A stretch of DNA of 64,000 nucleotides, from the NCBI GenBank assembly GCA_003344405.1, contig NOWV01000016.1, positions 124,001 to 188,000 of the forward strand. Reading direction: 5' to 3'. The translations under genes were made by a program, and so were the position numbers. The DNA is from Trichoplax sp. H2 (taxonomy: Eukaryota). The notes under the pieces were generated by a model. The model did no database searches. It was not told the origin of the DNA and saw only the letters and a program-made list of their open reading frames with translations. Of the stretch, positions 7,087 through 50,735 are shown piece after piece. The stretch's first letter is position 1. Every line of letters begins with the position of its first letter.

Positions 7087-8999
7087 AGAAATTTCGTACT
7101 ACATCTAGTTCATTATAACTTTTGTACAATATGCATCTAACAGAAATACATATACTCTAATTGCTGCAAATGATTACTATTAAGTAGATATGTTGTCTCG
7201 GTAATATTAAAAGAACGCTTCATTTTACGAATAATTAAATGTTCTATCCGACAGACATTCTGTACCTTTGTAGGCATAACCAATAATTATAATCAAGATT
7301 TTGCGAATTCCCTGGTGCAACCTAGAAGTGCAAATGCAGATGACTGCTTGTTATGATAGTGAAAAGAATTCGAGACACTCAATTTTTCATAAAGTTCTTA
7401 CATTATTTATTCGAATGTTTGCGTAATACGATATTGTCGAATGATTCACAGATACAACGCAATTTTTTTAAATCAACTTTACCTATAAATATAGTAAAGG
7501 ATATGGTAGTAGGCATCAATTAATTATAGTTATTGGATATGAGCTGCTTTAATCAATACATTTAAATATAACTCATTACTATAGTCTTGTCTAAGTCACT
7601 GCGTGACGACAAAACGAAAAACATTGCTGTAATGAGCTTGTAAAGAATTAGATATTGCGATATAATCATGATGAGTACGGTGATGAATTGGTGTTTTTGA
7701 AAAAGTCTGTTAATATCTTACTCAATCTGAGAAAACTGACAAAAATAAAGCATTATAAATGTAAAGAGGTTCTTTATTTCATGTAACTATCACCTAACAA
7801 TAATTTGTATACTGTACATAAATAATCACATAGGCTTTATTATGCCCCCCCCCCGTACGATATGGATAACGTATTCGCAGCCATGATAACCACTCGTTGC
7901 AGACGATTTTAAATTATTTATCACTGCATTACTTATAAGAATTGATGCCCATAAAGTTTTAAAACTAGATTTAGCAGCTTTGATACCAGGGTACTATGTC
8001 AATGGATTCTCAACTCTATTACGTTAATGGCATATTTACACGAGACTTTCTAGATTATTTTACATATACCATTGCTGGGTACTCTTAATAAAACATGTGT
8101 ATCACTGGCGTCTGAACAATCACTAGACTAAGGCTTGCTAAGTCATATAATTGATATAAATGCGGAATATGTGGTGGGTAATTTGTTAGTGAAGATACTA
8201 TAGCTTGCATTTTATGATACTAAGCTCTCATAGAGAGCTAAATCATGATGCTCCTACAGCAGCAGGTCTTTTAACAATTCTAGTACTAAACGATTATATA
8301 TAATAGAGTATTACGGCAAGAAATGTTAAAGTTCATTAACTTAAAAGTTGAAAGCTCCCCCACTAAAAATGAAATAAATCACAGTTACCATAGTACGCAA
8401 GCATAAAATTGTACGGTGTCCACAAAGTGATAAAGGAGACTTTTAGATTGAAACAACTGATAATAAATTCTGTTGATACATGCTATGCATTGATATGGAT
8501 ATCTTACGGGGACATTGTCTAGTGATATGTGATATCTATTGTGCAAGTTATTACTTATATCTAATCTGATAAAGCGAGAGCACTGAAGTCTGAAATCGCG
8601 CAGTAATTTCCGCTAAGAATCAACTTTTAAAAGTTATAAGACAGTTCTCATTCCTAATATAACGATCAATTTTGAGTACTACCCAACTTGATACGCTGTT
8701 ATTAAGCTCTAAAATTAAACTTAAAACACTGCGATTATTGGTATCATTTTAGATTTATTTATATTACAAAGTTATGTATCTTCAACTAAGGGTAAATCCT
8801 AGAAAGTAGATTAGCTCCATTATCAAAAGCTAAAGCAATAGCCGTGCGAGATTGGCGAGTATAAAATAATAATATATATATATTAACTTCACATACTTTA
8901 AAAATTCATGTAGAGAAGTCACTGTGTCGTTGTTAACATCATTTTAACTATTAATTAACTACTTAATATTACTCGATTGAATAGTTACAGCGCTTCCGT

Positions 9000-9013
9000 G
9001 TCACCATGGTAAC
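9000..9013. promoter_or_regulatory. RFX X-box (GTCACCATGGTAAC) upstream of the NSMF-like gene
   Basis: Matches the X-box consensus GTNRCC-N(0-3)-RGYAAC. It lies upstream of a probable 5'UTR exon (donor GTAAGC at 9338). Confidence 0.65.
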
Positions 9014-9940
9014 GCATTCCCTTTCTCTTATTTACGTACTATCTACGTCTTACGTTACAGTATATATGAATTTAGTCAATACGATCTTGTTTCCTTTACA
9101 TTGACGGAGGCATTTCTATAATATTATTATTTTATTAATTATTTGTAGCAAATAGACTATTGTAATAGTTACTGGTAGATTGATCAACAAGTAATTTGAA
9201 GAATCATCGTTCGAAAGACTTTTGGACGATATTATACGATATTCATTTCTGAAAAAAAGCTATGATCGATAGGACCGAAAACGTCAGCGTTAGGCTTTAG
9301 AGCCGTAACCCTAAGATAACTTACAAGCAAGAATTAGGTAAGCTCTGATTCTTCTTATAATTTCTAGTGATGATTATTAGGTAATAAATAGATAGTTATA
9401 TGCGATACATGAATCAATTATCATATAACGTAAAATTTCGTACAAATGGCTGTCTATATGTAATACAAAATATCAAGAGATCTGTTCTTGAATACAATAT
9501 TGCTGAATAATAACCATTATATTGCTAGTCCTTCTATTCTAGAGTATACATTACCGTTTCAAAATTATAAAATCTAAATGTTACTTAACGTAAATCCCTT
9601 GAAATATTATTACTTATATGCTATGATACATATAATAATTTTGTTCATAATCCTTACTGAACAACTTTAACAAATGATTCACCCCATAATTATCAAAGTC
9701 CAAATAATGTTAGATAAATAGTAGAAGATTATTTGGTATGTCGTGAAATAAGATATTCTCCAATCTATAGCTATGTTACAGTCAATTAAATGGATGTATG
9801 TTCTTAAATAAGGGTGATATATATAGCACATCTTTCGCTTATGAATTAAAAGATATTAGCATGTCTATAATAATTCTGCCGATAAAATTTGTGTTCGGTA
9901 GATAATGGCTACGTAAGAATTACTAAATAAAATAAATACA

Positions 9941-12900
9941 ATGGGAACGATAGTATCAACGCAAAAAGATGGATTACGTTCGTTACCTAGTCATCGAACA
10001 TTTCTATCGAGGTAAATAATATAACATAATATGTGTATAGCATCATAATACAGCGCACATCTAATTCTCTAAAGTAGGAAGGGGTTTACTTTTCTGTCGA
10101 TTTATAATGTTAAACTTCTATTTAATTTCAGCAATGCAATTGACTTTCAAAAAGAAATAACTAAAACATCATTTCCTCATTATCAGTACAAAACAGGTAA
10201 AGAAGAGAGTAGGATATGTATTATTACTATTTTAAATAAGATTGTTAACAAACTCCACTTTTCTTTTTTATTTAAAAATTTTCATATTAGCTAACGAGGG
10301 CTACATTGCTCAAAAAACAAAATCGTTCGTAGCAAGATTACCACCTGTTGATCATCCAGTTCTTGATAAATTGAATCATTTTGATGCTGATTATGCAGCA
10401 ATTCCAAAAAAAAATAAAGTTCATGTTACCTTTATTGATAACAAAAATACAGATCAAAATTTTAATCCAACAGCATCAGAATATCCCGCTGCAGTTAATA
10501 AAATTGCCTATAATACAGCGATAGAATTAAATGCACAGCGGTGGTATGGTGGCCAAGTTTTACAACCTTATACACCTAATACAGCACAACTTGAGTTAGG
10601 AAAGCGAATAAATGATGATTATGTACATCATAATAGTGATGGACTGGAAGGTGATCATTTGCATAGGACTGGTATAGCAAATGATGAGCTTAATAGATCA
10701 TCAAAGGAAGATAAATTATTATACACGTATCTCAGGGGAGATGCAGTTCAACTTGAAAGGTTAGTCCAAAAAGTTCATCATATTTACTTTACACTCATGC
10801 CATCTATTACATTTTGTGATTTGTCTCGTTGTGTATTCTACAATGATACGTTAGTAACATTGAAATAATTTAATTTTGATCACTTATTGAATTTTTCTCG
10901 CTAATTTATTGCTGTTAGCAATTTATTAATTGTAATTATGACTAGATGTGGCTAATAAGAATAAGAGTAGTATCTTAATTAATCTAAAATTTTGAAATTA
11001 ATTTATTGTTGCTATTTATTTTGACAATTGAGATGAATTAAATAGTGTTTTATCACGTTATAGTCAACCAAGTAAAAGTCCTAATCTAATTCAGCTTTTA
11101 GAGTAACATTTCTACTCAAGCAGCAGTGGATGTTTAAATTTTAAATAATAATGCTTTAATTTAGCAAATAATATAATTGCATACTGTAATATGCTAATGA
11201 ATCTATGCCATTTTTAACAGATATCCTAAGGGCAATATCATTAAGAGCAGAATTAATGAATACGCAAATGCTGTTAAAAACTTTAATTCTAGGTATTTCA
11301 ATTTATTGTTTATAATGGATATAGATCTGTGAGAAAATTTTCAATAATAAACTAAATTAATTTCCTAATTATGCAAATCTATATCAATGGTAAATATAAA
11401 GTAAGCTAAAATCTCACCAGAATAACATAAACGGACAAGACTCTGACGAAAGCCCCAGAGATGGAATAAAAACCAAATTACTAACATTAGATGATTTAGA
11501 ACCTGCTTATACAAGAGTAAATATATTAATTTTTAAAGTTTATTGATGAATATAGATTAACCGATATTTTTATTTTAATGCTAAACAATAACATTTATCT
11601 AATGCACTTAATTTCAAATTTTTTATTATATCCAATAATATAGGATATTATTTTAACTCCAAGAGTGTTGCAAAATGGCAGCAATCGATCAGGATCACGA
11701 AGTAAAAATCGTCAAAGTAACAGTCAAGGGTCGGCAAGTCGTCGTAGTTCAGGTCGAATGGCAACAGCAGGAGAAGGCAGAAAAAACATTAGAGGATATT
11801 CTACTAGAGATTCTGCGTCCAGATTAGGTAAAAATGATTATAAGCAATCATCACCTAAAACTGGTAGGAGAAGTCGAGCAGGATCCCCGTCTAAAGTTAA
11901 TGGAGGCAGTCAGAAAGAATTAAGCCAATCGCCTGCCAGCAGACAAAATAATGATTCAGCAGCAAGTCATGAAAGTAGTCGAGAATCATCTCCATATCGT
12001 AGAATTCGTTCCACATCTCCGGTTGGGAAGAGTAATATTGATCATACTACATCTAATAATAAATCATTACTACCTCGATCTAAGTTTACTGAAAGTAACG
12101 AAGCTAGAAAATTAAGACATGAGACGTTAAAAATGTTGGCCGATGATAGTATTGCCTTAGGTAAATAGCATTAGCTGATCTGTAGATTAGTTTACGGTAT
12201 AAGTACGATTACGGATGATTTATCATTCTTTTAATGCATTTATTTGTGCCTATTAATGGTTGTTTGTAATTAATCTTAGGTGATAATTTAAGGAGCGATT
12301 TTGTACAATATCAAAATGAAATTGAACGCTTGCGTTATCATGCAGAAGTTCATGTAAGTTAAGGAAATGAAAGCTTAATTAAGACAGTTTTTCTTATAAT
12401 TGTATACTTAAAAGGACATATAATTAAAAGTTATGATGGCAGTATTACAATTATCGTAATATCATATCCTCTTTATTTGACAGCTGATGTATTTGATTTG
12501 ATTTAATAGCAGTATAAAATTCATTGATTTGTTGAAGAATTGACGCCAAAAATTTATCTATTTGTAGATTTGAATGTGTTGTTTTATATAAAATTTACAG
12601 TAATACTAATTTATTTATGGTAGGAGTTAAACAGTCAAAATTAAACTCATATTATTTCTGAACTCTTCGTTTAGTATGAATTATCATTAGGCGAGAATTT
12701 TAATCCGCCGCGTGTGGTGGTAAGTTCATGACCGATATAATTCTAGGATAAATACTCATATTTCAATAACTATTAACGACCGGACGATTGCAAATAGGTT
12801 TTCAATATTATTATTCTTTCTAACAATTTGTTACTATAGCTTCTATCTTCGAGCATTCAGTTTGGTGATGGCCTAAAACGAGCCGCTCTGAAACATACTA

Positions 12901-14349
12901 TAATCATCCATTATGTAATTAACCGAAAACTATAATTTAGAAATAGAATATACCTAAAAGATGCTTTGAATTATGATATTGACAAGTGTAATTAATATCG
13001 CAAAAACTGAACAGCTTTTTTAATTCTGCTATTTTAATACCAGGACTTTCAAAAAGCTACCTTCGATTCGCTAGTTGGTTAGTTGCAAGTTATAGTTAAG
13101 CGTCGAGTACCTCTTTTGCTAAATGTCTATACTGTAAAGCGGTTAACTTGATTAATAGAATGGAAAATACGTGCGACAAGGAATTAATGTGTTAAAATAT
13201 TATCTTTCAGAGGAAATTAATAAGAGGGTAAATCAATACAAGGATGGCTGTCGAATCAAGTCGTTAGCTTTATATTGCAAGGTATTGGATTTGATAGGTT
13301 TTAAACTACATAATAAGAAGAGAGTATGATAGGATAATAAGAAATCTTCTGTTAATAAGTATTTATGTCAATCAACACAGGGAGGACCTGGCTACATATA
13401 TTTCTTAAGAAATGAAGTTATTACGGATAAGAAACTAGTTTATAACAACCCAATCGCTCAGTAAGTTATAATATATACTGTATATACAGTATATAGCGTA
13501 CTATGGGTGGCATGTGCGCCTGCTGTTAAAATGGAATTGCTGAAGATAGTGGTACTGGATCTCTTTGATATTAAAATAATAATTACTGATTTTAACTGTA
13601 TTCTGGATTATACAAACATTAGATTCTTTCGCGATGTTAGCCGAATTATGAGTAAATTAGGACCCAATGTAACGTCTGTGCATGTTATGGGGTGTAATCT
13701 AACTGGAACAAGTAGTGGGCATGAGGTAATTTTAATTTTGTTTAGAATAACAGTTAGGCGATATATTCAAATATTGGTGTATGTACTAAGTGAGGCGCGT
13801 CTATCTGCTAGTTACTGTTGAAGACACAGTAATTTAAAATAAATTCATATCGAATTATGTCCATGATATTGAATAATATTAGTATGAATCAATGTATTCT
13901 AAGGTCGCAGTGATACGAATAACTAATTTGAAAAGTTTATAGATATTTAAGCCTAATTTATATAATTACAACTTGCAAAGGAAGGACAGAAGTATTCATT
14001 ATGCCTGTTTTGTTGCGTGTTATTGAAATTAACCGCAAGTTAATCATTCTATTTATTGATAATTTTCATAGCTATTGCAACTCATTCAGAAGGTTATGGA
14101 GCCAACTAAACTAACTATCTCAGCACCTGTTGAGCAATCACAAGCTGGTAAGTAGCAGATAAATGTTGAACTTTGATTCTGAAATAGAATTGATATAGTA
14201 TAAATTCTAATGATGATGCACTATGTCTAGGTTCCGAAATGATTAGTCAATATTTTGATATCAAAAAATATCGAGAATGGAAAGATAAAACGACAAGTTT
14301 CATTTATTCGAAAAGATTTAGCAAAAGAAAATTACATTTGAAGTTTTAA
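9941..14349 (+). CDS. NSMF: NSMF (Jacob/NELF)-like protein: N-terminal MGxxxS myristoylation motif, Ser/Arg-rich disordered middle, conserved C-terminal domain
   Basis: The spliced C-terminus reads PPRVVLLSSSI...IHYDFQKATFDSLVEEINKRVNQYKDGCRIKSLALYCKGGPGYIYFLRNEV...FFRDVSRIMSKLGPNVTSVHVMGCNLTG...APVEQSQAGSEMISQYFDIKKYREWK. This aligns colinearly with human NSMF as recalled (PPKVMLISSKV...LYDHEHATFEDILEEI...FCQGGPGHLYLLKNKV...RLMSKVNP...IHIMGC...SPLELSAQGKQMIETYFDFRLYRLWK). Exon phases are consistent from ATG 9941 to TAA 14347-14349. Confidence 0.85.
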
Positions 14350-14841
14350 AAATATAGGCGAAATTGTATTCAAATAAATCATGACATATAATTAGTACTG
14401 TACAAGTAATTTATTACGAATAGCTAAATGGAATTACTGTTGAAATGAGCTTGACTGTTATATGGATGTTTTATTCGTACGTTCACTAATTTTCAAAAGG
14501 AATTTGATCATTTATAACTGAAGATGATTTGATTCTTAAAAAGTACTTTTTATGGTACAAATGTTCTTTATTTATTTCTGTATGAAATTTTTTAATAGCA
14601 ACACAAATAAAACAAGAAAAGATATATTTATATTGCATGACAGTTCTAGATAGATATACGTATCAAGAAAATAATTCTCCCGAATGATTTCTAATTACGA
14701 AATTGAGTAATTGAGCATGCGTTTGATTTAGTTTACCTGTTACAGTAGGCAGTATAGCATACGGGTACAATATAATGTTTTGTTCAGAGAATATACATTA
14801 TTAATAATAATCTTACAGTGATAGAGAAAAGATACGATTTG

Positions 14842-17950: not shown

Positions 17951-20282
17951 ATGGCATTACTATCGGTTGGAACGAGTAGTCGTAGCTGCCATTATCCTCT
18001 ACGACGTGTCGCCTACTCGGCATCATGCCAATTTCATCATCATTACTATGATGAGAATTCTTCAACATGGCAACCAAATCATCATTTCCGTGACTTCTAT
18101 TACCCTACGAATACTGGACTGTCTAGGTTGCAATCCAAGATAAATCATCAACGACAGATAACTACTTGGCAATCGCCTCTTGTTGCCAATCATAAGGTAA
18201 TCCATCCGTTCATGATTTTGTCTCATTTTTTTCGATAGCACTGTATAGCAACGTTAAACGGTAGTGGTGTATATTGCATTGATCGGATCCGATAGGATGA
18301 TGGCGTTATTAGTCGCTATCATTCTAATAGCAACTTTGCGCAAGTAATTAGAATGAATGAATGAAAATCGATCGAGTCATGATAGCCATGTTTATATGCA
18401 ATAATTTTGATGCTACAAGATAGAAAGACGATCAATAAGTTTCGTCTGGCCAGTCTAATAATCTCTCGTACTCGAATAGTAGCAGATTGTTTCCGTTTTG
18501 GTTTGCATAGGCAATGAGGCCAGTAAACCATTGTACTAGATACAGTAGGTCTTGATGAAGGTCAAATAGGCTTTTAATAATCGTCTGTCATTTTTGCCAT
18601 TGGATTGTCAGGAATCATTCATGTTAGCTTGCCCCCCACCTGGTAATGATATGAGCGCTTATCGTAAAAACTCGTCCTCGCTGATGGCATATCCAACATC
18701 CAACAAAGCATCATGGAACCATGGCATCGTCAATACGCGTCGATCAAAAAACTCCAGCAATTCGACTCTCTTAACCGACAATGATAAAATGAAATCTGGT
18801 GTCAAGCTACCTGTAATAAAAGACAAATTAGCTGGTCGTGTAATAAATGATTGCAATCATTTACATTGTGAGTTAGGATTAAATAATTGGATTTCAAAGG
18901 GATATCATCGAAATAAACTACCCCAATCGAAGAATCGAAGGATCCATCATATGTATATCATGGCTCTCCTATGCTACAAGTCAACAATATTGAACAGGTA
19001 ATGATGAATCATTCTGTTCCAGCTTGGACGCTTTCAATATCTGATAATCATCAGTGCTGTAAAGAACAATCAATAGTAAATAGTAAAAGTGAAAAGAAAC
19101 TTAAAGACGATACTAAGACTCTTCCATCAACAGCTCAGTTGGAAGTAATCAGAGAGAGACTTTCATTTGAGGTAATAGAACGTAGTAGCATTTAGCTAGT
19201 AATATGTAATTGGCTTTAAAATTATTTCCATTTTCTAATAATTCAATATCAAAATTAAACAACATGTGGATAAATGGTTTCCAATCTCTTCTTTTATGGT
19301 CTATCTAGCTTCCAGACTTTTTTACTGCAAAGCAGAGTTATAGTATTTACAGTGATAATATTGTCTTCGAAAACAAACTATTAAATATTAAAGTCAGGTT
19401 AGTACTGATGAATTATGGACGGTCTTGCTTTGCTAGAGAGAGCAGAATGATCCTTTGTTGCATTATTATTTGCAGTGTTTACTTTTTTTAATACTGATGT
19501 TGTAATAGCATTGTGGGTATCATAGAAACAGGTTATGTACATGTTCTGAATGGATGTTCTGTAGGGGTTTAACATCATACAAAATGATGGTCGCTACGAT
19601 GAAAGGAATGTGCAGAGCTTACTGCTGTAATTTAGTTTTTGATGTACTCAAAATTACCAAGCATCACGACGATGGAACTATTCGTATTAGATGGAGAGTA
19701 ACTGGACTTCCACGACATCAAGTTGCATTACTAATTTGGCCATTTATTCAATCGCCCAAATGCAGGTATATTTCAAATATTGTAGTATTGCCATGATGAG
19801 GTGTGCATACCTGTTGACTAGTTTAATTTACCGATATCCAGTAATATTCCAGCACAAAGTGTTATTGTAGTTATGTATATGTTAATGTTACTTTAGTTGT
19901 ATAACAGGTAAACAGTGCTACTATATGCACATCACTGCAAATGAATGCCATTGTGTTATAATTTATCTTTTGTCGTGGATATTAAATTTTTAGATATTTT
20001 GAATGCTTTTCGGTCTTACGGGTTGGAATTAATGGTGTAATTAATCACCATCGCCTAGACAAGGTAAATACTGTATAAACTTGTATGGTACAGTCTTTTT
20101 ACAGTACAAAATATTTTTACATATTTTCAAACGCGAAATTTTTTCGAGAACTCTTTGAGTTGTAGCTCAGTGTAATTAACTCTCATAGAGTAGACAATAA
20201 AATAATGTGTTTAACTTATGGTTAGGTTACGCCTTCTGATTATCCTGAGACTACTCAGCGAAATCTATGGCTACCGGTCTAG
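17951..20282 (+). CDS. C6orf136: C6orf136 homolog (DUF2358 / NTF2-like domain), probable mitochondrial presequence
   Basis: The spliced C-terminus QLEVIRERLSFELPDFF...YSIYSDNIVFENKLLNIKVRG...DVLKITKHHDDGTIRIRWRVTGLP...YFECFSVLRVGINGVINHHRLDKVTPS matches the C6orf136 family (ERLRQELP, YSLYS, ARWRLVGLP, HRLDKLMPS). One internal junction (~18998-19083) is tentative. Confidence 0.85.
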
Positions 20283-24792: not shown

Positions 24793-27700
24793 ATGGCTGA
24801 TGTAGAAGGAGCTGTGGAAAAAGAAGATACGCCAAGGCAGACACTTGAAAATGGAGAGGAAGAGGTAAGCGATATCGTTAAAGTAGAACATAGAGTACGA
24901 TTCAATAAGCAGTTGCAAGTTGATGTTTAAAACATGATGATTGAAAACATCACTTTTATCGACTTGTATTGGCGTTGGATAGCCTCAGATCAATTTAGAA
25001 CTTGGCCAGTTGGATTTAACCTCGCAAGACGATTACTTTTTAGATGAAGTGGATGGTAAGTGTATAGGGTATATTTTATACGGTAGATGACAGGAAATGG
25101 ATCTTGACAGGAATGGATCTTGTTTTTGATGGAGATATCCATTAGAGAATTGGATCATCTTGATGACTGTACTGTTACTTTGATGATCGTGAAAACAATA
25201 CTTTTGCATCGAATCCACAACGTTATTGATATATTGATGTCAGTATATCTTCTGATTGATAGTGCATATTCAAGAAAATCTAGAAGATGAATTAGTCCAA
25301 GAAGCACTTAAAACGGTATAATCACTATCGGTAGAGGCTTGACTCAGCTTTGATATCATCAGTTGAATTCTTTCCTATGGACTATTTTATGTAGGGTGTC
25401 GATTTACGACAGTACTCACGACAGATACAGCGTGAGCTTTGCGTTGTGGAGAATTCATCTATACAAGATTGTATCCCCTCCTCGTACTTTGTACAACATT
25501 TAACGTACTATTGCTACATTCATTCAAGTAAACAATCAAACTTATTAGAAGTGATATAGCAATGCTCTTTAACTAAGACTTAATATACAAAGATATCAAA
25601 GAAAGCGAAAATATTGCCAGTTTACATTATCAGATTGCTTCTTGTGACTCTCTCCTAGAGGTAATGTTCATAATGATCAGTCTACTGCTAAATACTGTTA
25701 TAAATCTTAAACTATTGTTTCAATGCCTAGTGTAAGTCTTAGCTTAACAGTCATATTTAGCCTCTCGATGTTGTAATCAAGACTTTTTTCGCTCCGATAG
25801 GTATTTATTTTCTCCTACATTAGATTATCCTTAGAATTATAATTGTACATATTGTCTAAGTTAGCTATAGGACTCGAGAGAGTAGAGATACCATTGCTTT
25901 TTTCCATGATGCTCTTAAAATGATTCACCAATATTACGTTCTAAAGATAATACCAATGTTTTGATCAACATGAATTGAACTCGTAGTCAATCAGATGTAC
26001 TTGTGCATACAATTATTACTGTAGATTGTACGGATAAATCTATTTATGTCTCAAAATAAGGAATCAATTTGTATTTTTCGCAGCTTATGATACTAATAAC
26101 TCATTTTCTTTCTTCTATTCCAGCGAATGGAACAGATGCTAAGTAGCTTTCAGGTCATTATTTATACTTACACTGGAGACGTATTAATGATATGTTTAAT
26201 TTCTAAGACTTGGATTTATTGCTTGCTAACGATAACAGACTGACTTGCGTAGCATTAGTACAGAAATTCAGACCTTACAAGAGCAATCTATGTCTATGAA
26301 TATTAAATTAAAGAATCGACAGGTAACTCAATTTGTACAATCTATGCTGTACGAAGATGATAAAGTTATTTATTGATGTAGTTATCTATAATGAAATCCA
26401 ATTAATACTAACAATTCTTCAATGTCATCAGTCGGTTAGGAGTGAACTTAGCCAGTTCGTTGATGAAATGGTTGTTAGCGATTATCTTATAAAGTCAGTA
26501 TATAGAATCATTTATTTATTCTGTATTTGCTTTTATTGATCTACTGTATACTGCAAAATTAACTGCAACCTTGCTTTATCTATTAGACATATTTGTGAGA
26601 CTTCTGTAGTCGAACGTGCTTTTATCGAATGTTTACACGAACTAGCACATAAAATTAATTTCTTAAAGGAGCAAATGTTTCGTGATACATTGGCTTGCGA
26701 AGATGTTAAGGATGTCATCGAAAAACTGAGAGTGAAGGTTATATTTCAGCGACATTGTCGCCTATTATCACCTTTATGCAATCCATTAAATTATTCCCCT
26801 ACATTAATTTTTAGGCCGTAAGTAAATGTCGTGATTATTTGCTCGGCAAAATTTATCAGTTCCGTAAGCCTATGGCAAACTATCAAGTTCCACAGGATAC
26901 GCTATTACGTTATAGGTAAGACTTTTCCTTCAGAAGAGGTCATTGACGCTACTCATTTATTCAGTAATTAACACTCTGCTATTTACTTCCTTGTAGATAT
27001 TTTAATGAATTTCTTATGTCGAATCATCGTCAAGTTGCCACAGAAGTGCGGGATGTTTACCTGGAAACTATGAGCAAAATCTATTATTGCTATTTCCGTG
27101 GATATATTACAAAATTGTTAAAATTGCCTGTAAGTTATGAATAGTAATTGTAATACTAATAGTAATATTGAGCCAAAACGAAGCTTGCATCTTTTGAATG
27201 TGTATTTACAGATAGAAACTATCGCTGAAAAGGAAGATTTAATAGGAACAGAAGATTCTACTAGACGAGATATCTTTCTAATGTGCTTTATGCACTCTTT
27301 CTAATTTTTTACTTCATTGTAGCACAATTCAATCAATAAGTTAATAAGATAGTCCTTGACAATGAAGTAACCCTGTTTTCAGTTAAAACGGTCGTAAAAA
27401 ATCGATCAGCTATATTTTGTTTAGGACACCGAATATGCGTCTTAACAACTGAACTGAATGATCCAATCATTGTACCTCATACTGCTGGTAAAGGAGATAA
27501 AAAGGTTTGTCATTTTAACATTTCTCTAGGATCTAGATTATGTTTCCAAATTAAATTACTGACATTGCAAACTATCTATCTATTAATAGCATTCCTTAGA
27601 AAATATATTTAGAAGTGTTCAATTCGCTTTGGCGGATAACTGTTGCCGTGAATACCAATTTGTAGTTGATTTCTTTAATGCAAGTGGCTCACGCGCACAA

Positions 27701-29409
27701 GATTTATTTACCAGCATATTAGGAAAAACACTTCACTTATATTTGGTAACTTTATTGCAATTTAAATTACAGTATAGTTACGTAAAGATTTTTATATGGG
27801 CTGTAATTGAAGACTAACCAAATATCTTGATGTATAGAAATATACTGATATGTACTTAGAAGGATGTTATGATGGAATTGGTGTATTATTGTGCTTGCAT
27901 CTTGCATATCGCTACCAAGAAATGATGGAGAAGAAGAATATTCCATGCCTTGAAAAGTAAAGTTATCACTATTATTATTCCTTGGAAACAATTGACAGTA
28001 TCGCTTATCCATTATCAAATTTTTAAGATGTAATTCATGTTATATACTTACCATTTTGAAGGTACTGGAACTCTTTGCTTGCCAATATTTGGCCTAAATT
28101 TGCACATATTATGGAGCTTAATATACAAAGTATTAGGGATATTGACCCACAGAAAGTCAACAATATCGATATTAGGCCTCATTACGTAAGTATATATACA
28201 AATTTTGCAAGATTCCACACGACTAGATGTTGTAATTTATTCATTCAAGTGCTGCCGATATAAACAGATAGATTTTCTGTTAGGTTGCCCGCCGATATAC
28301 TGACTTTTGTCAAGCTATATTAACAATTAATGAATTTCATGCAGATGAAAAGGTATTATGCTAATACTTTTAATCATTATTATTCACGTTTGATTTACCC
28401 CTTGTTATTTTCATCTTCTTTATTTGAACGTAAATAAACTTCATCCTCAATTTTTTTTTCACATAGGCTATGAAATTGATGGGGCAATTACAAATGGAAG
28501 TAGAAAACTTCATTTTGAGAATGGCTGCAGAATTTCAGCATCGAAAGGAACAGTTAATATTTTTAATAAACAACTACGATCATATGATGACAGTAAATCT
28601 AGTAAGAATGGCCATTAAATTATTACTACCTATGTTATTGCAGTTTTTGATAGTCGTTGATATTGCCGTAGTTAAACACTAATTTCATTTTGTATTAGGA
28701 TCGGGTAAATGACGATGGATCACATCATGAAAGTTTCCAACAAACTCTAAATGCACGTATTCAAGAATTTGTTGAGGAGGTACTGCATTTCGGTAATGTC
28801 GTTGTTTATTAATTTAATTTTGATCACTAAAAGGTTTGTATATATATTTTTTATTTAGATTCTACAACCTAACTTTGGAGGTATGATTAATTTTGTTAAG
28901 GAAACTGAAAATGCTATTGAACATGGTAATAAAGTCCATGTTGATGAACGTAAGTAAGAGTATTTTATCATCGACTCTAGACAGTTTGTTCATTTATATG
29001 AGCCGTACCAACACTCAATATTGTGTATACACAGGTCGTATAAAAACTTTAATCCAATCATTCAATGCCGAATGGAAGAAAGCCATAGATAATATAGATC
29101 ACGATGTTATGCAATCATTTACTAACTTTAAGAATGGAACATCAATCTTACAGGTAATATTTTGCATCCAATCAATTTACTTGAGACTATGATTGGTATA
29201 CTCATAGTGATATTTGTATAAATATAACTTACATTGGTCTCTTATTGATTGTTATTTTATAGGCCGTTTTAACACAATTAATTCAATATTACCATCGTTT
29301 TCAAAAGATCCTTAATCAGTCTCCGTTTAAAAATTTAACCTGTCGCAATGAAATTATTAATATACATAATGTAATGGTTGAAATTAAGAAACATAAGACA
29401 TCTCTCTAA
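24793..29409 (+). CDS. VPS52: Vacuolar protein sorting 52 (GARP/EARP subunit), multi-exon, with two U12-type introns
   Basis: Exons give GVDLRQYSRQIQREL...DYIKESENIASLH...MEQMLSSFQTDLRSISTEIQTLQEQSMSMNIKLKNRQ...FRKPMANYQVPQ...DIRPHYVARRY...FLINNYD...SFTNFKNGTSILQAVLTQLIQYYHRFQK...INIHNVMVEIKKHK. An in-frame upstream ATG at 24748 is an alternative start. Confidence 0.95.
25471..25592 (+). other. Putative U12-type (minor spliceosome) GT-AG intron in VPS52
   Basis: 5' site GTATCCCC (U12 consensus RTATCCTT), branch-like TCTTTAAC at 25566-25573, no polypyrimidine tract before the AG. Removal restores the conserved D-Y-I-K-E-S-E-N. Confidence 0.65.
27270..27370 (+). other. U12-type intron in VPS52 with AT 5' end and non-canonical 3' end (AA at 27370, or AG at 27367)
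   Basis: 5' ATATCTTT at 27270 and branch point TCCTTGAC at 27353-27360. The reading frame is restored only with a 3' end at 27370 (AA) or 27367 (AG); AC at 27371 gives a stop. Confidence 0.8.
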
Positions 29410-31026: not shown

Positions 31027-31298
31027 AAAAAATACTTGCAGATAAATATGCAACAGTACGATGAAGAGCATTTCAGTGAAATTGGCGATGTTTTCCATAA
31101 TATCCATTAATAGTAGGTTGTACATTTCTCCATCAAGACCACATTGATCAGTTATACTGTACAACAAGCACGTTATTTCATTTCTTTGAGTTGCAGAGAT
31201 TTGGACTATGCAAAATCTCCATCATCATCTCCAGTAGTAGAAATAATTGAAAGAGAATATTGAAGTGATCAGTCAACATACAAAATTCCACAGCAAAA

Positions 31299-34200
31299 AT
31301 GACTGACCATTGCATACGTCAAGAAGAAAACAAAGAAAATGTAGCATCATCTGAGCCGTTTCTAAAATTTGTCCCATTTAATGGTAGTCAATCGGCAGCA
31401 CAAACACAAACTGAAGATGATCATCCTGTTTTAGTATTGAAACATTTTGCTCAAGTACCCAAGCTCTATTTTGATAAAGTCAAAGTTGGCCGAAACAAAT
31501 CGATTTTATTAACGATTGTCAATCCATCGTCCAAAATACATCATATCAAAGTTGGAAAAGTATCTGAATTAAAAGGCTTTACAGTCAATACAACAACATT
31601 AGCTATCCAACCCGAGAGTCAACAACAACTCGAAATTACCTGGAATCCTAAAGTCGTTGGCTCAGTTCACGATACTTTGGTTTTAGTAAGCCAAAACACT
31701 CACCGATTACACGTAGTTCTTAATGGAACTGCTATTGAATCGCCTCATAAGGTATGATTAACTTACACATATTTGATAGCACGGTATTTTAGACGATATT
31801 TGAAGTTGAAACTGGAATAAAATACAATATGCCGTACATTACATACTGTATCGAAATACATAGTTCAAAAGAACATGTTGAATCTTATGATTACACGTAC
31901 AGTACACGTATATCTTGCTCGGCTATAGTATACCAATTACGGTCAGCTAATGCGCCTAGATTAAAAATAACGTCATTTCTAACCGATCCTTGTGGCTAAT
32001 AATTATAATTATTTTTATAATTATTGTAGAAAAGAACCGGGCGAAGACTTAATCAACAACGTCATCAAGTTAATAATAAACTACACAAGGTAATGGAAGA
32101 GACTATGCAATCGTCGTTCATCATAATCAATTCATCTAATATTGATGCTATCAATGTTGAAATGGACTGATAAACTGACAAAGTATTGTAGCAACTGGGT
32201 GTACTTATGGAAGTAATGTAAAATTTTTATGTTATCTTTTTTCACACGTTAGATTAACACATCGAAGCCAAATCAGAAAGCAGTACTAAATACAGTCATT
32301 GATGTCTTACAGGGAGACGCTAACAAGGTGACCATAACATCAAAAATTCAAACTTATAGTAATGTATAATAATTTAAAGGATCTAGCCAATTAATCTTAT
32401 ATGTGTTGATATCCATGTATTATTTAGAATAATAAATCGGAATCAAATCAAAAAGTTCCAACAACAACTACAACGGATGCTGTACAAAATGATACGAAAC
32501 ATCAAGTTCAAGACGAACAAACTAATGTATCAACTTCAAATCATCATCAACAATATGGCCAAGAAAAATTTGTCAATTCCCAGTTGGTTGATTTTCAATC
32601 AACTAATCATGATAACCAATTAAAAAAAAGTCATTTTGGTAATCATATTATTCGAGAAACTTACACTAAATCGGAATTGGAAGATTCTCTATTAGGAAAT
32701 GTTGATTCATGTCCAGATGATAAAGAAGACAATGATAATAACAACCGTAATAATAGCAATCTTAACACCCAAGAAAGTAATTCCAAGACAGAATTTAAAG
32801 TTCGTATCAATAAGACCATTCCTAATAAATGCGTCAAGGCCAAAGTAAACTCTGAAAGTACTGCTAAGAATAAGACTAAGCAACAACAGCTTCAGTCTTC
32901 ACAACGCAAGGGTAATAAAGATAAACTGTTAATAAAAATACTAGTAAACGATATATAGATTTAATATTGCGTTATACTTATCTCCTATCTCTTTTGCTTA
33001 TCTATGGGCATATCTGCCTAAAACTTTCCTTGTAGCCACTCTTCCAAAAACATTCAACATAAGGGGCATAGCTCAATCTCGCCTGCGACTCATTTCTAAT
33101 GGATCCGGTTAGTTGACTCTATTTTGATTGATAACAATGTAGCGTATCTATTCTACTTCTGATTGTAATGTTGGTATATTCAAATACTTCTTTAATACAG
33201 CAGTTAAGAAAACCAAAACAATCTCACCATTTGCAAGTCAAAATAATTGTTACGATGATCGCTGGATTGATAAGCAAGAAAGAGGTCAGACATTGACGTT
33301 TTCTGAGTATTAAATACGCATAACTCTTTATTCATATTGCAATTAAATACTTTATAAAAATCTTAATTATTGTTATTAATGACTTGCAGGATTTACGTGT
33401 TGGCTTAATTTTATTCTTGTTCCTTGCGAAGATGGCGTATCTATGAACAAATTTGTAACCAAAGGTAACTAATTCTAAAATACCTGGTATCTACTAATAT
33501 CCATTTATCATTCGATGAAATTATCTAACTACATCTCTCTTGTATTATAGTTGATGCTAGTACCCTAGCACTAACAACGGATACAACAACACGACAGTAT
33601 CATCCGACTAAAGATACCTTATCATACAAAAATTATGAAAATCGAAAGCATTTAATGATGCTAAGGAGAGCAGCATGTATATTATACCAATCGAAGCCAG
33701 TTAGAATGGTGGTAGAACGTATTACTGATGCTGTAAAAGAAAGAAAATTTACATTCAAACTGGATGCTAATATTCATAGTGATTTAGGTATTAATTAAAA
33801 TAATTTTTCATATTTTCAATTTATTAAATATAGCGGTAGATATAGTGTTTCAAAATTAATATAAGATTTTTAATTGACTATAATTCTCAATATGACTAGG
33901 CCTCAAACAAAACTTGTTAGATCTATTGCTATCATATAATCCACTTTGGCTACGCATTGGATTAGAGGTATATTATTATGTTGATAAGATGCTATGAAGG
34001 AATTAAAATAACGATTTTAATAATTTCTGATAAATATAATATATTCTGATCACTCTATAAGACTTCCAGAACAATTAACGTATCGAAATAACTAAAAATT
34101 CTTCTCACATTGATACTGTATCATATCAATAAAATATTACACTCTATATCTCAAGCGCTGATATAAAGTGAAGCGATTTAACATATTAATTTGGTATTAT

Positions 34201-37200
34201 GGATCTTTCCTATTAATACATAGACAATTTACGGTGAAGTATTAATGATTGAATCAAATCAAGATATCATTGGTTTGTCCACTTTTATTATCTCACGATT
34301 CTTAAGCAATCCTGATATTATTAAAAAGTACAGAGACTCTTCAAATCTGGAAAGCTTTTCTAATAAAAAAGGTAACTAGTGGATTAACATATTTTATTAT
34401 ACATTATTCGATAATTGCACTTAAAACAGTTTTAGGTCGATGAGGTTGTTGATGTAAGCAAAATCTTTTTCTAAATTAGATTTTAAAGAAGCGTTAGGAC
34501 AATATGTCATCAAGCAATTCCTGCTATTAATATTCTGTATTGATCAAGCTAAGTTAACTCGCCTTATTGATCATGATCCATGTTTATTTTGTATGGATGC
34601 AAAATTCAAGGTTGGTATTATCAAGCTCTAATTACAAGTACTATAATTAATAGAGAATTGTATTCGATACTATGGTAAAGCGCGAAATTTCTCTAATTGC
34701 ATAATTTCTATTCTATTTTTAGTCAAGTCGTGATTTACTTTTAAAGCTTTCACGAGAATATTTACGAGGCGAGGGAGATATTATTCGTCATTTAGGACAA
34801 TTTGGGTATAATGTTACTCATGTTCAAGTAAGTTATCATTAGTCGTTAATATAATAGTCTGTATTTGCATAATTTGCAATACTAAAGAATAATATAACGT
34901 TTACAACTACATTTCTTAATGATGAATTATGTATTTATCAGACACCTTTGGATGAATACAACTACGCGGTTACAAATCTAGCTGTAGATTTAAGAGATGG
35001 CGTTCGATTAGCGTAAGTAATAATAATCAATCAAGCAAAATTACAACCAATATTGTCTAATCTATACGTAAAACTCTTGGCTATACAGACGGTTAATAGA
35101 ATTGTTCTCTCGAGAATGGGGAATTACATCCAATTTAAAACTGCCTGTTAATAGCAGATTACAGGTTAGATTTATATTACTATGTATTAAAATTAAAATA
35201 CCTAAGCTGATCTTTTTCTCAGGTATAATTTGATCAATATCATTAAACTGTTAATAGAAACTGAAGAATGTTCAGGAATCGCTTGCTGTACTCAAAGAGA
35301 AAAAATTACTAAACAATATTGAAGGTAAATATTCGGAGTAGATTTTATGATTATAAGTTCACTACTTTATGATAGTTTTATAGTATTAGCGATTATTCTA
35401 AACTCACATTTTTTATTTGTAACATAGTCAAACTGTACGGTTCCGCAATTGTGGATGGACATCGAGAGAAGACCCTTGCTTTGCTTTGGAAAGTAATTCA
35501 GCATTATCAGGTAGTTGTAACTATAGCATTATCAAACAAAATAGCATACAATTTCGAAAATTTAAGTATAGGCAAAATTAAATTTAGCCTAATGATTCTA
35601 AAATAATCGATTAGGTCAATGTTATTCTCAATGAAGATCACTTACGGGAGGAGATTATTTACTTACGAAGGGAATACAGAAAGAAATTGAAGCTATTATC
35701 GCCAGATATTGATATTAGTTATACAATCCCATATAATGATATGTACGTCGATCATTTACAATTGAATTTACTATTATCATGGTGCCAATCGGTTTGCAAA
35801 CTATATGGAATTGAGGTAACAGTGTAGCAATTTCTTATTTTTTACGTCATATAACACCTATTATAATTACACCTTATATTTACATTAATAGAACAATATA
35901 ATTAACGCTATACATAAAGTTGTATATGTACGTACATAAATACGATTTCTATGGAACTCTTTGGTAGTTCCTGATGGTTGTATTAATAATTAATAAGATA
36001 TACGTTTAGACGAAGTAATTTGACTGTTTGAATACAACGATATTTGTCCTGCAGTGGACATAACTCTGTGTACTGTACAAAACTACACATTAACTATCCA
36101 ATTACTGTAATTGTTCTAAGGCTAATTAGTACATTGATTGTTAATACTAGATTACTTGTCTTGATAAATTGCTAAACCACTGATATAAATGATTCTGTCG
36201 CGTATATTGTAATAAGATAATATATTTACATATGCTTATAATACTATGCTAATTTTCTAATTAACAAACAGATCAATAATTTTACGGCCTCATTCGGGGA
36301 TGGCCGCGCTTTATGCTGCCTTGTCCATCATTATCATCCTGGTCTTTTACCATATTCAAAAATAAGACACGAAACTACATTAACGATTTTAAACTATGAA
36401 GAAGAACCGGATGATAATATGACAAATTTAGTTGATACCAAAGAAGGATGGTCGGCTGTCTTTAGCCCAAGTAAAAGTCAATTTCGATAGCATTTAATCA
36501 CTTCAGTAATTAATTTAATTTAACAAGATTTTTGTAAAAGTTTAGCTTCACTCAATTACAACTGTTTTTATTTTAGAGACAGGAAAAGCCTCCAAATATG
36601 ATAAACTTAAAGCAAATGAGAAATATAATTTTAACTTATATAATCATAAGGTTCGATATAGCATTAGATTTTAGAACGATCAAATTAATCTCGAATGCCC
36701 ATGGTATTGTACCAGAAATAAATATAATTTGTATTCAATATACGTATAGATACAAGAAATGAGAGGCGTTCCACTTCTTTTTAAAGCATCACAAATAATA
36801 AATGGCATCCCAGAAGAGAAAGTTATGATAGCACATCTATCTTACTTATGCTCAAAATTATTAGAAATAAGACAAGAGTCAAGAGCTGCAATCTGTATCC
36901 AAAAAGCATGGAGAAGTTATAGTGACATGAAAGAATTAATTATTCAGCAGGTATAGCTATTGACTATTCAATTCAAAGTTATGTAATTAGTGATTTAGGC
37001 AGCTTTCTATGTTCTTGTTTGATCTATCATGTTAATAACTATAACATTTTATTTAAAAATTGCAAATAACAGAATAGAGAAACGGCTGCCATTAAACTTC
37101 AAGGTGTAATAAGAGGTTATCTCACCCGCAAAGATTGTCGAAATCGAATTAATAAAGTTGTAATAATTCAGAGTTATTGGCGTGGATATGTTGCTCGTTG

Positions 37201-49012: not shown

Positions 49013-50735
49013 ATGAATCATAATCACACACATGATGGCAGTACAATGCCTACGGGTACGCATAGTATGCATATGCATCCTACTACAGCTAATAGCCACG
49101 CAGGCCATGGACCTTCGTCGACTCCAGGCCATCAAGTAAGAGGAATTAAATCTATTTTGATGATTTTTAATAGCATAGATTGGAATAAAATTGATATTTT
49201 TTAGCATACTAATATGCTATGGTTTGTTCATTGATCGGCTTATACATATGATTACTATTCCATTGCCAGGGATATTTCTATTTTAGTGACCAAGCAATAG
49301 TCCTGTTTGCTGGTTGGAAAATTACCACCGCTTCTGGTAAATTAAGTAGTCATTACTATGCAAAGCTGTTATTTCAACGTCCTAAATCGAGGGATTTAAG
49401 TGATCGTTCGAAAACGTGATGATAATAATAAATGTATACATCACGTATTCAATTTTTTCACACAATTTATTAATTAGACTTCATTACTATTATCTATTGT
49501 CAGTTGCATAATACATTTGTTCTCACTCTAGAAAGCATACAATAATTCAGCGTACAGTTGATTTTTGCCCTTTAGATAGCTAAAAAATTGAATGCATTAT
49601 CCGCTTGTCTAGATACAATTGCAATGAACATTTTTAGAGTATCTAATACACCTTTAATATGATGTGAAAAATGCTTAACATTGGCAAGATATTGAAATAC
49701 GATTGTAATAAATAGGACAGGCAGCCAGTACATCTATAATACGATAATGCAATTAAATGCCAACATTTGCAAAATTTTGAAATACGATTGTAATAAATAG
49801 CATCCAGTATACTTTTAAAACAATGATGTAAATAATTACTAACATTTTCAAAATAGTGAAATACTATTGCAATAAATAGAACAGAGCATCCAGTATACCT
49901 GTAGTACAATGATATAAAAAATACTAACATTTCCAAAATATTAAAACACGTTTACAATGTATAGAACAGTGCCCATTCCACCTATAATACAATGATGCAA
50001 AAATACTAACATTTGTAAAATACTAAAATTTAGGAATGGCTTTATCCTGTGTGGGTATTTTCTTTTTGGCTTGGCTTTATGAAGGTTTAAAAGTTTTTCG
50101 TGAAAGATGGTTTTACAATAGTATCCAATACGATCGTAGTCGTAAAATTAGTAAAATTACGGAAAGGTAAGCAATTTTTTGGGCTATTGGAGACTCCTAG
50201 AATCTGATGGAGTGAACGTATTGTTCTTAGAAATACTATAACAATTATGATACTAATAGAAATAGGTTAACTTTGATGTATTCTTTGCAGTCTTTATTGT
50301 AATGAATATTGAAAATTAGGTAATAACTTGCTTGTTGAAAAGTAAAATTTGGATTCATCATATTGTGCTTGATTATAAAAAATCAATCTCTTTATAGAGT
50401 AACATTAATCCCACTGTGTTTATTAACGGTTATCATCAGCTCATTTGCAACCTTGATTGATTTATTCTACGTTAATATTAAAGTTTGAGCGATGCAAACT
50501 AATACATGATGTCCTTTCTTCATTTCTTAGCTTTTCTGGAAGATGTTTCGGTGACCATATACTACAAACGATTCTACATGTCATTCAAATTGTGTTGAGC
50601 TACTTCTTAATGTTAATTTTCATGACCTATAACGGCTACTTATGCATAGCTGTTGCTGCTGGCTCTGGCTTTGGCTATTTGACTTTTGGATGGCTTCGTA
50701 GAACCTTCCAAGACACGACCGAACATTGTCATTAA
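49013..50735 (+). CDS. SLC31A1: High-affinity copper transporter CTR1 (4 coding exons)
   Basis: His/Met-rich N-terminus (MNH, ATCUN-like), YFYFS...[46 protein letters not shown] (MxxxM), GSGFG (GxxxG), and C-terminal EHCH. Confidence 0.93.
49650..50025. repeat. Degenerate ~80-90 bp minisatellite in a CTR1 intron
   Basis: Recurrent AACATT..AAAAT..TGAAATACGATTGTAATAAATAG..CA(T/G)CCAGTA..CT(A/G)TA..ACAATGAT units. Confidence 0.7.

Follow-up and report, generated by a model that had tools for sequence, protein, structure and literature searches.

Jacob/NSMF (also NELF; NMDA receptor synaptonuclear signaling and neuronal migration factor) has been studied as a synapse-specific messenger of vertebrates and has been linked to Kallmann syndrome as well as to the shut-off of CREB induced by amyloid. 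Many 'synaptic' protein families are already known from placozoans, and Trichoplax has, to our knowledge, neither neurons nor NMDA-receptor synapses. Passages of a 2021 specialist review state that an invertebrate Jacob orthologue had not been found, that a functional myristoylation motif is confined to mammals and that Jacob lacks a known domain organisation; they also assign the conserved part of vertebrate NSMF to exons 10–16 (PMC8662305). A section of a jellyfish genome paper from 2024 counts NSMF among the gene families that occur in other species of its comparison (PMC11250803). Two further systems are relevant here. Tce1 (PA0256; PDB 9qpe chain G) is a T6SS cargo effector that is secreted, is loaded into Hcp rings and has a putative His/Cys dyad, and PA0256 of Pseudomonas aeruginosa is described as carrying DUF4347 in a portion of PMC8262886. 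ECT2L is, according to excerpts of the respective reports, Foxj1-induced and required for motile cilia in zebrafish (PMC4199137), and placed in the transition-zone doublet of bovine cilia (bioRxiv 10.64898/2026.06.11.731632).

Results and Discussion

Analysis of the window, that is, the whole 64-kb stretch of Trichoplax DNA, revealed a transcribed 16-exon gene on the + strand (9079–14637), with 15 GT-AG junctions that are all present in RNA contigs, each in 4/4 runs (3 studies). The spliced ORF of 1986 nt encodes 661 aa in 15 coding exons and contains one stop codon, which is terminal. Upstream of the ATG at 9941, the spliced mRNA contains in-frame stops and two tiny uORFs (12 and 3 codons). 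A hand-spliced model (14 exons, all GT-AG, 636 aa) agrees with the RNA contigs at 12 of its 13 junctions (4/4 runs), while the remaining one (12719/13044) is replaced in the RNA by two junctions that flank a 75-nt exon at 12840–12914. The RNA also adds a non-coding 5′ exon (at least 9079–9337), which is spliced to 9902. Because the RNA contigs include the extra 75-nt exon, the protein is taken to be 661 aa rather than 636 aa, although a minor isoform that skips this exon may occur alongside the included form. The features of the locus are as follows; "model" denotes the splice model.

9000–9013, + strand: X-box-like motif GTCACCATGGTAAC, a near-palindrome and candidate RFX site (consensus match; position relative to RNA contigs)
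9061–9067, + strand: TATA-like string TATATAT, 12–28 nt before the 5′ contig ends at 9079/9095 (read from the sequence)
9079–9337, + strand: non-coding 5′ exon, donor AG/gtaagc (RNA joint 9334→9899, cut +3, GT..AG, 4/4 runs)
9902–10011, + strand: exon 2, with the CDS start at ATG 9941 (MGTIVS..., N-myristoylation consensus; model, RNA)
10132–10196, + strand: coding exon 2 (model, RNA)
10291–10759, + strand: coding exon 3, 156 aa without family matches beyond Trichoplax (model, RNA, protein search)
11221–11292, + strand: coding exon 4 (model, RNA)
11402–11516, + strand: coding exon 5, weak acceptor (aaag/) supported by RNA (model, RNA)
11644–12160, + strand: coding exon 6, Ser/Arg-rich linker, probably disordered, with 6 of the 8 S/T-P sites and several basic clusters (model, RNA)
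12280–12353, + strand: coding exon 7, helix running into the conserved domain (model, RNA, homologue model)
12675–12719, + strand: coding exon 8 (model, RNA)
12840–12914, + strand: coding exon 9, 75 nt/25 aa, conserved first two strands of the domain (RNA joints 12718→12839 and 12914→13044, 4/4 runs; frame kept)
13044–13077, + strand: coding exon 10 (model, RNA)
13211–13281, + strand: coding exon 11 (model, RNA)
13381–13460, + strand: coding exon 12, GGPGY loop (model, RNA, alignment)
13623–13725, + strand: coding exon 13, VHVMGC strand (model, RNA, alignment)
14072–14147, + strand: coding exon 14 (model, RNA)
14231–14637, + strand: last exon; stop codon ends at 14349, 3′ UTR to at least 14637 (model; contigs reach 14623–14700)

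The 5′ limit of the first exon is a lower bound given by contig ends at 9079, 9095, 9142 and 9175, and transcription may start further upstream; the TATA-like string is weak evidence for the start because the surrounding region is ~70% A+T. The use of the 9941 exon as the first coding exon, on which the earlier note had asked for RNA evidence together with the junctions, is borne out by the contigs of all four runs. That note had spread the conserved domain over about eight tiny exons, and the count is corrected here to nine, of 34–119 nt. Its statement that the ORF track misses the gene does not hold for the gene as a whole, because both large exons show up as plain ORFs (210 and 174 aa).

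The public record already contains the gene, under the label 'uncharacterized'. The best protein match is TRIADDRAFT_53430 of T. adhaerens (636 aa), which is 99% identical to the hand-spliced model (630/636), comes from the same locus and has the same 14 exons; the host is therefore a placozoan, as the premise of a neuron-less basal animal had required. The six substitutions are K72N, A78D, K85P, N142S, V487I and N534D. The public-model bases at 10370 and 10406–10408 (K72N, K85P) are carried by 4/4 RNA runs and that at 10387 (A78D) by 3/4. TRIADDRAFT_53430 lacks the 75-nt exon found in all four RNA runs, and addition of the corresponding 25 aa improves the family E-values by 5–10 orders of magnitude and fuses split alignments. 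The RNA-supported exon thus corrects the public Trichoplax gene model.

A phmmer search with residues 416–636 of the public model against 1.84 billion proteins gave 83 matches with E ≤ 1e-3 (the public Trichoplax model itself included), 58 with E ≤ 1e-10 and 9 with E ≤ 1e-30. The proposed NSMF/Jacob homology, with a C-terminal region of ~200 aa colinear with vertebrate NSMF, is confirmed by the match to P0006, named by NCBI as turtle NSMF isoform X5, at 38% identity and E 4.6e-32; the similarity is thus significant. With the RNA-supported exon, and at the same Z, P0006 is found with E 3.4e-35 and P0002 with E 1.9e-42, in a single alignment over ~200 aa. The closest matches, P0002–P0005, carry no protein names, and all named relatives are NSMF. 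The ESM Atlas independently placed NSMF clusters first (0.91, 197 of 256 features).

At the N-terminus, MGTIVST at ATG 9941 fits the PROSITE N-myristoylation pattern, G-{EDRKHPFYW}-x(2)-[STAGCN]-{P}, and lipidation is predicted. The earlier reading of MGTIVS as an MGxxxS myristoylation start holds up in the family: the form MG{not EDRKHPFYW}xx[STAGCN]{not P} recurs in 12/83 matches, with two more at an internal Met, and in 73/119 further vertebrate rows. The family N-termini listed also have a basic run after MGxxxS, followed by an A-x-S-A-x-x-A-F-like stretch. Protein and Pfam searches gave no match outside Trichoplax for the first ~430 aa of the Trichoplax protein. The whole protein contains eight S/T-P sites. 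With regard to a nuclear localisation signal, the sequence shows only basic clusters, which start at positions 339, 383 and 650 in the numbering of the 661-aa protein. IQ-type families scored above the cut-off in 5 of the 17 homologues scanned with Pfam; in the Trichoplax protein, neither Pfam (E ≤ 1, public model) nor a regex search of the linker gave an IQ motif, which indicates that the caldendrin/IQ module of Jacob is absent or undetectable.

Taken together, we consider it likely that the gene is a placozoan member of the NSMF/Jacob family that is transcribed and encodes a 661-aa protein, with the working model of function given below. An expressed placozoan homologue in which the lipidation-type start and the C-terminal domain are both retained contradicts the statements of the review passages that Jacob has no invertebrate orthologue and that a functional myristoylation motif is mammalian only. 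The novelty is tempered by the synaptic families known from placozoans and by the mention of NSMF in the jellyfish paper.

The region 5′ of the gene raises the question of its regulation. The X-box proposed upstream of the gene is indeed present: GTCACCATGGTAAC lies just 5′ of the transcribed region, with ~66 nt between it and the outermost RNA contig end (9079). It is the sole match to GTNRCCNNRGYAAC in the 64 kb, where shuffles predict 0.07 matches and 7/100 shuffles contain at least one. It fits the least-degenerate consensus given in part of PMC2375033, RTNRCC N1-3 RGYAAC, on the + strand, and GYTRYY N1-3 RRHRAC from the same source on the − strand. The motif is not shared with a divergent exon at 8700–8900, as no RNA contig covers that interval. 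RFX input through this site is a tentative proposal that could well prove wrong. A stronger version, in which the gene belongs to an RFX ciliary regulon, the X-box drives expression in ciliated epithelium and the ancestral form of NSMF was a myristoylated signalling protein associated with the cilium, would draw on this near-palindromic consensus fit and on its position; ciliary-gene X-boxes of C. elegans lie 100–250 bp upstream of the coding sequence, as described in a section of PMC2873420. It would also draw on a related stretch that the NSMF-family profile finds in ECT2L (E 5.8e-10), although that link is to a distant paralogous domain and not to NSMF. According to a passage of PMC2375033, however, one motif that lacks cross-species conservation does not predict RFX dependence. 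In addition, the window contains three other sites of the RTNRCC consensus at non-ciliary or unassigned genes (one 5′ of a P5A-ATPase exon, one within an ASPM-like gene and one close to a copper-transporter gene), and the enrichment of 4 sites versus 0.48 uses a Markov-1 background that is blind to exon/intron composition. Membership of a ciliary regulon therefore appears rather unlikely.

The gene could also encode a DUF4347-domain paralogue of NSMF from another, unnamed subfamily, for example the one with a W-S-S-L-A acidic tail, in which case the N-terminal MG motif would be convergent. The vertebrate rows make up a single clade of the domain tree (support 100). The Trichoplax row has a long branch (1.95) and is not joined to any subset of rows by a branch with SH-aLRT of at least 95%; a strict one-to-one orthologue relationship with vertebrate NSMF hence goes beyond the tree. 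At least one non-vertebrate subfamily is well supported (11 rows, SH-aLRT 99), and the namelessness of P0002–P0005 leaves room for such a reading. The Trichoplax protein, however, keeps the NSMF architecture (MGxxxS start, long disordered middle, domain at the very C-terminus), and its domain ends in a YFD..Y..WK-type motif instead of the WSSLA tail. Every named relative is NSMF, and ECT2L, the sole other vertebrate family found, is much more distant. We regard a paralogue as improbable and retain membership of the NSMF/Jacob family.

AF2 gave confident models for the domain in two relatives: P0002, the closest homologue (mean pLDDT 83.9, 190 residues at ≥90), and P0006, the protein named NSMF (198 residues at ≥90). 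Both match chain G of 9qpe (Tce1) best, with Z 11.0 and 11.4, rmsd 3.1 Å, 147 of 178 residues and 18% identity; structure matches after Tce1 have Z ≤ 6.2. Pfam DUF4347 (PF14252) is listed at E ≤ 0.1 in 11/17 homologues and exceeds the gathering score of 24.6 bits in two (P0003, 27.1; P0004, 25.7); the public Trichoplax model, which is without the 25-aa exon, reaches 16.8 bits and falls under this cut-off. As modelled on P0002 and turtle NSMF rather than on Trichoplax, the C-terminal domain of the family is a confidently folded alpha/beta domain of DUF4347/Tce1 type. A folded module in these models contradicts the no-domain statement of the review, and it has both bacterial (DUF4347/Tce1) and ciliary (ECT2L) relatives.

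The match to Tce1 raises the possibility that the domain is an active clan-CD-like cysteine protease that cleaves substrates, as proposed for Tce1/Tce2. Clan-CD proteases (TcdA/TcdB CPD, C11, CHAT, caspase and legumain) occupy the weaker tail of the structure search (Z 5.2–6.2), behind the Tce1 C-terminal domain as the top match. Portions of PMC13323088 describe a putative His186/Cys240 dyad in Tce1 and a C115S exchange that abolishes Tce2 toxicity in yeast, but also report no toxicity for Tce1 itself. Two columns of the family alignment, Y/H behind GGPG and Cys within 'MGC', lie 48 residues apart, a spacing like that of the Tce1/Tce2 dyads, although these columns were mapped to the dyad from spacing and aligned ranges and not by residue-level superposition. 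His and Cys occur together in 9/11 vertebrate rows, but in only 15/52 rows of the alignment overall and 6/41 rows outside the vertebrate clade; the His-position column reads Y23/H20/F5/C3/M1, and Cys occupies the Cys column in only 31/52 rows. Because Trichoplax has Tyr at the His position (with the Cys present) and neither column is conserved across the family, the domain is proposed to be a binding module and not an enzyme, and an active protease is very improbable.

In the working model for this NSMF/Jacob family member, the protein would be N-myristoylated and held at the membrane, its long Ser/Arg-rich middle would be disordered and regulated by phosphorylation, and the C-terminal domain would bind protein rather than act as an enzyme. 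By analogy with Jacob, it might then be released and move to the nucleus; membrane-to-nucleus signalling in Trichoplax is drawn from that analogy, for a protein without the IQ/caldendrin module. NSMF would be older than synapses only if placozoans are primitively neuron-less. In a more speculative scenario, to which we give little credence, the conserved NSMF/Jacob C-terminus has an ancient fold of DUF4347, Tce1-like (clan-CD protease-like) type that was already joined to a myristoylated N-terminus in the placozoan–vertebrate ancestor, before neurons, as an RFX-controlled signalling protein of membrane or cilium, and vertebrate NSMF with His and Cys is perhaps a latent protease or a protease-derived substrate trap. 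As a simple animal free of neurons, Trichoplax lends itself to the search for binding partners of the conserved domain.

Comparison with known systems

ECT2L (epithelial cell-transforming sequence 2 oncogene-like; PDB 11xu) is a distant relative: its residues 287–382 cover the first ~100 positions of the NSMF-family domain in the profile alignment, at the E-value given above, a partial match in which the GGPG loop is not kept, and it is a 904-aa putative guanine-nucleotide exchange factor of other architecture and a ciliary protein. Tce1 resembles the animal domain in fold, but its dyad residues are not conserved in the animal NSMF family, and the animal proteins, in contrast to this secreted effector, are probably cytosolic and lipid-anchored. 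Compared with NSMF/Jacob, no IQ motif was detected in the Trichoplax protein, and Tyr replaces His after the GGPG loop. The LMO4 region of Jacob is described as mammal-specific, with the ERK phosphosite S180 conserved among mammals, in a passage of PMC8662305. Shared with vertebrate NSMF are the MGxxxS myristoylation-type start, a long low-complexity Ser-rich middle, and a colinear domain of ~200 aa (38% identity, E 3e-35) that forms the very C-terminal end of the protein and has its coding sequence divided among many small exons.

Gene Structure

In this eukaryotic, A+T-rich window (ca. 30% G+C), the largest exon of the NSMF/Jacob-like gene matched a single protein, TRIADDRAFT_53430, a 636-residue "uncharacterized protein" from Trichoplax adhaerens, with 97% identity over the exon, which identifies the host as a placozoan. 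Splicing by coordinates gave 14 exons with GT-AG boundaries throughout, and the 636-residue product is identical to the public protein at 630 of 636 positions, the six differences being K72N, A78D, K85P, N142S, V487I, and N534D. Four of the 21 public runs for the stretch, drawn from three studies, were compared with positions 8700–14700; two (X4 and X7) are recorded as RNA and two (X5 and X6) are RNA by guess only. All four are assembled contigs, which are informative on junctions and not on transcript starts or expression levels, and stretches that lack contig cover, such as 8700–8900, do not indicate silence. At the variant positions (10370, 10387, and 10406–10409), the RNA carries public-type bases in all four runs at 10370 and 10406–10408 and in three of them at 10387, indicating that the window and the RNA come from different strains or haplotypes.

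Analysis of the contigs revealed 15 GT..AG joints, each present in all four runs. Twelve are also present in the 14-exon model; the one other junction of that model, from 12719 to 13044, was seen in none of the runs, and two joints flanking a 75-nt exon (12840–12914) stand in its place. The last joint connects a non-coding 5′ exon (donor after 9337) to 9902, and contigs of this exon begin at 9079, 9095, 9142, and 9175. The corrected coding sequence comprises 1986 nt (661 residues) with a single terminal stop, and because the 298-nt leader contains in-frame stops and only two tiny uORFs, the main ORF is opened by the ATG at 9941. The RNA joints (4/4 runs) and the ORF analysis agree with the earlier note in placing the ATG at 9941 in the first coding exon. 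Low-depth contigs at 9403–9928, 12324–12704, and 13696–14099 were considered as isoforms and set aside, as they contain introns and were taken to be unspliced RNA or DNA carry-over.

The exon at 12840–12914 is absent from TRIADDRAFT_53430 and is represented in the RNA contigs of all four runs. Its 25 residues supply two strands of the conserved domain, a block that is kept in all relatives. With the database size set as in the exhaustive search described below, its addition changed the local phmmer E-value from 1.5e-32 to 1.9e-42 for P0002, the closest homologue (unnamed), and from 1.2e-30 to 3.4e-35 for P0006, a turtle NSMF, and split alignments merged into one of about 200 residues. The RNA support, the restored block, and the better E-values show that the public model is incomplete, although a minor isoform that skips this exon may exist and would be compatible with the contigs.

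Family and Fold

A word-indexed search with the C-terminal region as query returned only the protein itself, which made an exhaustive HMMER search necessary. Residues 416–636 of the public protein were run with phmmer against 1.84 billion representatives, giving 83 matches at E≤1e-3, 58 at E≤1e-10, and 9 at E≤1e-30; the stretch they share, query positions 58–205, is C-terminal or nearly so in most of the listed matches. The target library carries no names, and these were taken instead from a profile search and the ESM Atlas. Among the 120 rows listed by the profile search, all but five are vertebrate NSMF or NELF by name. P0006, which matched at E 4.6e-32 with 38% identity in the exhaustive search, is named [quoted passage not shown]. 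NSMF clusters ranked top in the Atlas with the Trichoplax C-terminus (0.91; 197 of 256 features), and both Atlas searches gave chordate NSMF clusters, one bacterial cluster, and nothing else. The name of P0006, the profile-search names, and the Atlas ranking together show that the central claim of the earlier note, homology to NSMF/Jacob, was correct, and on sequence comparison the Trichoplax protein can be assigned firmly to the NSMF family.

For a rapid maximum-likelihood analysis of the domain, 55 rows were used; of 89 candidates, 54 had alignments covering 150 or more query residues and were kept. The vertebrate rows fall into a single clade (SH-aLRT 100). The branch of the Trichoplax row is long (1.95) and takes no settled place among the unnamed rows outside this clade, which include a separate subfamily whose tail is acidic (W-S-S-L-A). 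Strict orthology to vertebrate NSMF is probable.

Pfam gives only a weak DUF4347 match in the public Trichoplax model, in which the 75-nt exon is missing (16.8 bits versus a cut-off of 24.6); of 17 homologues scanned, 11 list the domain, two of them above the cut-off. AlphaFold2 models calculated with family alignments are confident and α/β for both P0002 (mean pLDDT 83.9, 190 residues ≥90) and P0006 (198 residues ≥90, domain at 235–406). A review quotes a "zinc-finger" reading of the NSMF C-terminus, whereas the models have an α/β domain there. Foldseek gave no match in the PDB at E≤0.001. With an exhaustive structure aligner, 9qpe chain G, the C-terminal domain of Tce1, a T6SS cargo effector from Pseudomonas aeruginosa, was far ahead for both models (Z 11.0 and 11.4, rmsd 3.1 Å, 147 residues aligned, 18% identity); the next rows reach at most 6.2, and among them are caspases, legumain, CHAT, C11 proteases, and the protease domains of TcdA/TcdB. 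A sequence profile of the family did not reach 9qpe among PDB sequences at E≤10.

Tce1 is PA0256, described as a DUF4347 protein in PMC8262886. A further paper (PMC13323088) proposes a His186/Cys240 dyad for Tce1 by analogy with TcdB and shows that Cys115 is needed for Tce2 toxicity in yeast. Across the 52 aligned family rows, the residue following the GGPG loop (column of P0002 residue 110) is Tyr in 23 rows, His in 20, Phe in five, Cys in three, and Met in one, and the "MGC" residue 48 positions further on (column of P0002 residue 158) is Cys in 31. We infer, from spacing and aligned ranges only, that these two columns correspond to the dyad positions of Tce1. Nine of the 11 vertebrate rows, and six of the 41 others, have both His and Cys; the vertebrate His/Cys spacing matches the putative catalytic dyad of Tce1, and most rows outside the vertebrate clade do not have the pair. 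Trichoplax has Tyr and Cys. We conclude that the domain, as modelled in its relatives, has a protease-like fold and most probably serves as a binding module in Trichoplax.

The family profile also matches ECT2L, a ciliary protein (PDB 11xu chain A1, residues 287–382; E 5.8e-10), over the first ca. 100 domain positions. ECT2L is a Foxj1-induced gene required for motile cilia in zebrafish, according to PMC4199137, and a preprint assigns it to the bovine ciliary transition-zone doublet (bioRxiv 10.64898/2026.06.11.731632). Our literature search found no paper that names ECT2L and NSMF together.

Candidate X-box and Neighborhood

An X-box upstream of the gene had been noted earlier, and GTCACCATGGTAAC does stand at 9000–9013, 66 nt 5′ of the outermost contig end, with a TATA-like string (9061–9067) in between. 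It is the sole match to GTNRCCNNRGYAAC in the 64-kb window (0.07 expected), and its position is typical of X-boxes as described in PMC2873420. The restrictive consensus RTNRCC N1-3 RGYAAC, taken from PMC2375033, has four sites in the window versus 0.48 in 200 Markov-1 simulations, only one of which reached four, an enrichment that is probably overstated because the Markov-1 background ignores exon/intron composition. Sites and other genes in the window are as follows.

Further X-box-like sites and other genes in the window
41: site fitting RTNRCC N1-3 RGYAAC
33455: site fitting RTNRCC N1-3 RGYAAC
51867: site fitting RTNRCC N1-3 RGYAAC
57563: GTTGCTATGGAAAC, fits a second X-box consensus
212 to ca. 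7000, +: P5A-type ATPase, upstream neighbor (2TM_P5A-ATPase hairpin, E 1e-29, then DKTGTLT- and GDGTND-type exons)
19509–19793, +: exon of a DUF2358 protein
26540–27814, +: exon of a Vps52 homologue
ca. 31269–42261, +: ASPM-like gene (ASH-domain exon 31269–31754, CH-domain exon 36242–36487)
37371–41747, +: single 4.4-kb exon of the ASPM-like gene, at least 13 IQ repeats
50457–50732, +: exon of a Ctr copper transporter
60456–61373, −: single-exon 306-residue ORF, class I SAM-methyltransferase domain (Methyltransf_11, E 2e-22)

The three other sites are found upstream of a P5A-ATPase exon, within an ASPM-like gene, and near a copper-transporter gene, respectively one at each place; the genes beside the additional sites are not obviously ciliary. 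The upstream neighbor shares its strand with the NSMF-like gene. The single-exon methyltransferase ORF is unusual beside its intron-rich neighbors.

A Drosophila study stresses that a lone X-box lacking cross-species conservation does not predict RFX dependence (PMC2375033), and our literature search returned nothing relevant that joins RFX, X-box, and Trichoplax. Functional RFX input through the candidate site is possible, if somewhat short of an even chance. A ciliary ancestral role, rated jointly with the other parts of the most novel interpretation, comes out below this and appears unlikely.

Comparison with Jacob

The locus was already public as an uncharacterized protein. In a 2024 jellyfish genome paper (PMC11250803), NSMF is among the gene families "lost" in one species, and its peer-review file gives such genes one or two copies in the other species compared; NSMF outside vertebrates has therefore already been seen by orthology pipelines. 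That paper apart, the literature search found none linking NSMF to Trichoplax or cnidaria, and none on TRIADDRAFT_53430. The present analysis corrects the gene model, assigns a fold to the conserved domain, links it to a domain in ECT2L, and contributes a candidate X-box; the protein itself joins a family that was already known.

The Trichoplax start, MGTIVST, matches the N-myristoylation pattern, as had been proposed. This pattern opens 12 of the 83 family matches, with two more at an internal Met in models that are probably over-extended, and 73 of 119 further vertebrate rows. A basic run followed by an Ala/Ser-rich stretch is common to the listed family N-termini, the Trichoplax version being less basic. 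For the first ca. 430 residues, protein search and Pfam gave no relatives outside Trichoplax. Residues ca. 265–436 are Ser/Arg-rich and hold the majority of the eight S/T-P sites of the whole protein, which also has several basic clusters. Jacob has an IQ motif, whereas at E≤1 Pfam detected none in the Trichoplax protein; IQ-type families exceed the cut-off in 5 of 17 homologues scanned. A 2021 review of Jacob states that an invertebrate orthologue was not found and that a functional myristoylation motif is restricted to mammals (PMC8662305); neither statement fits the present sequence data.
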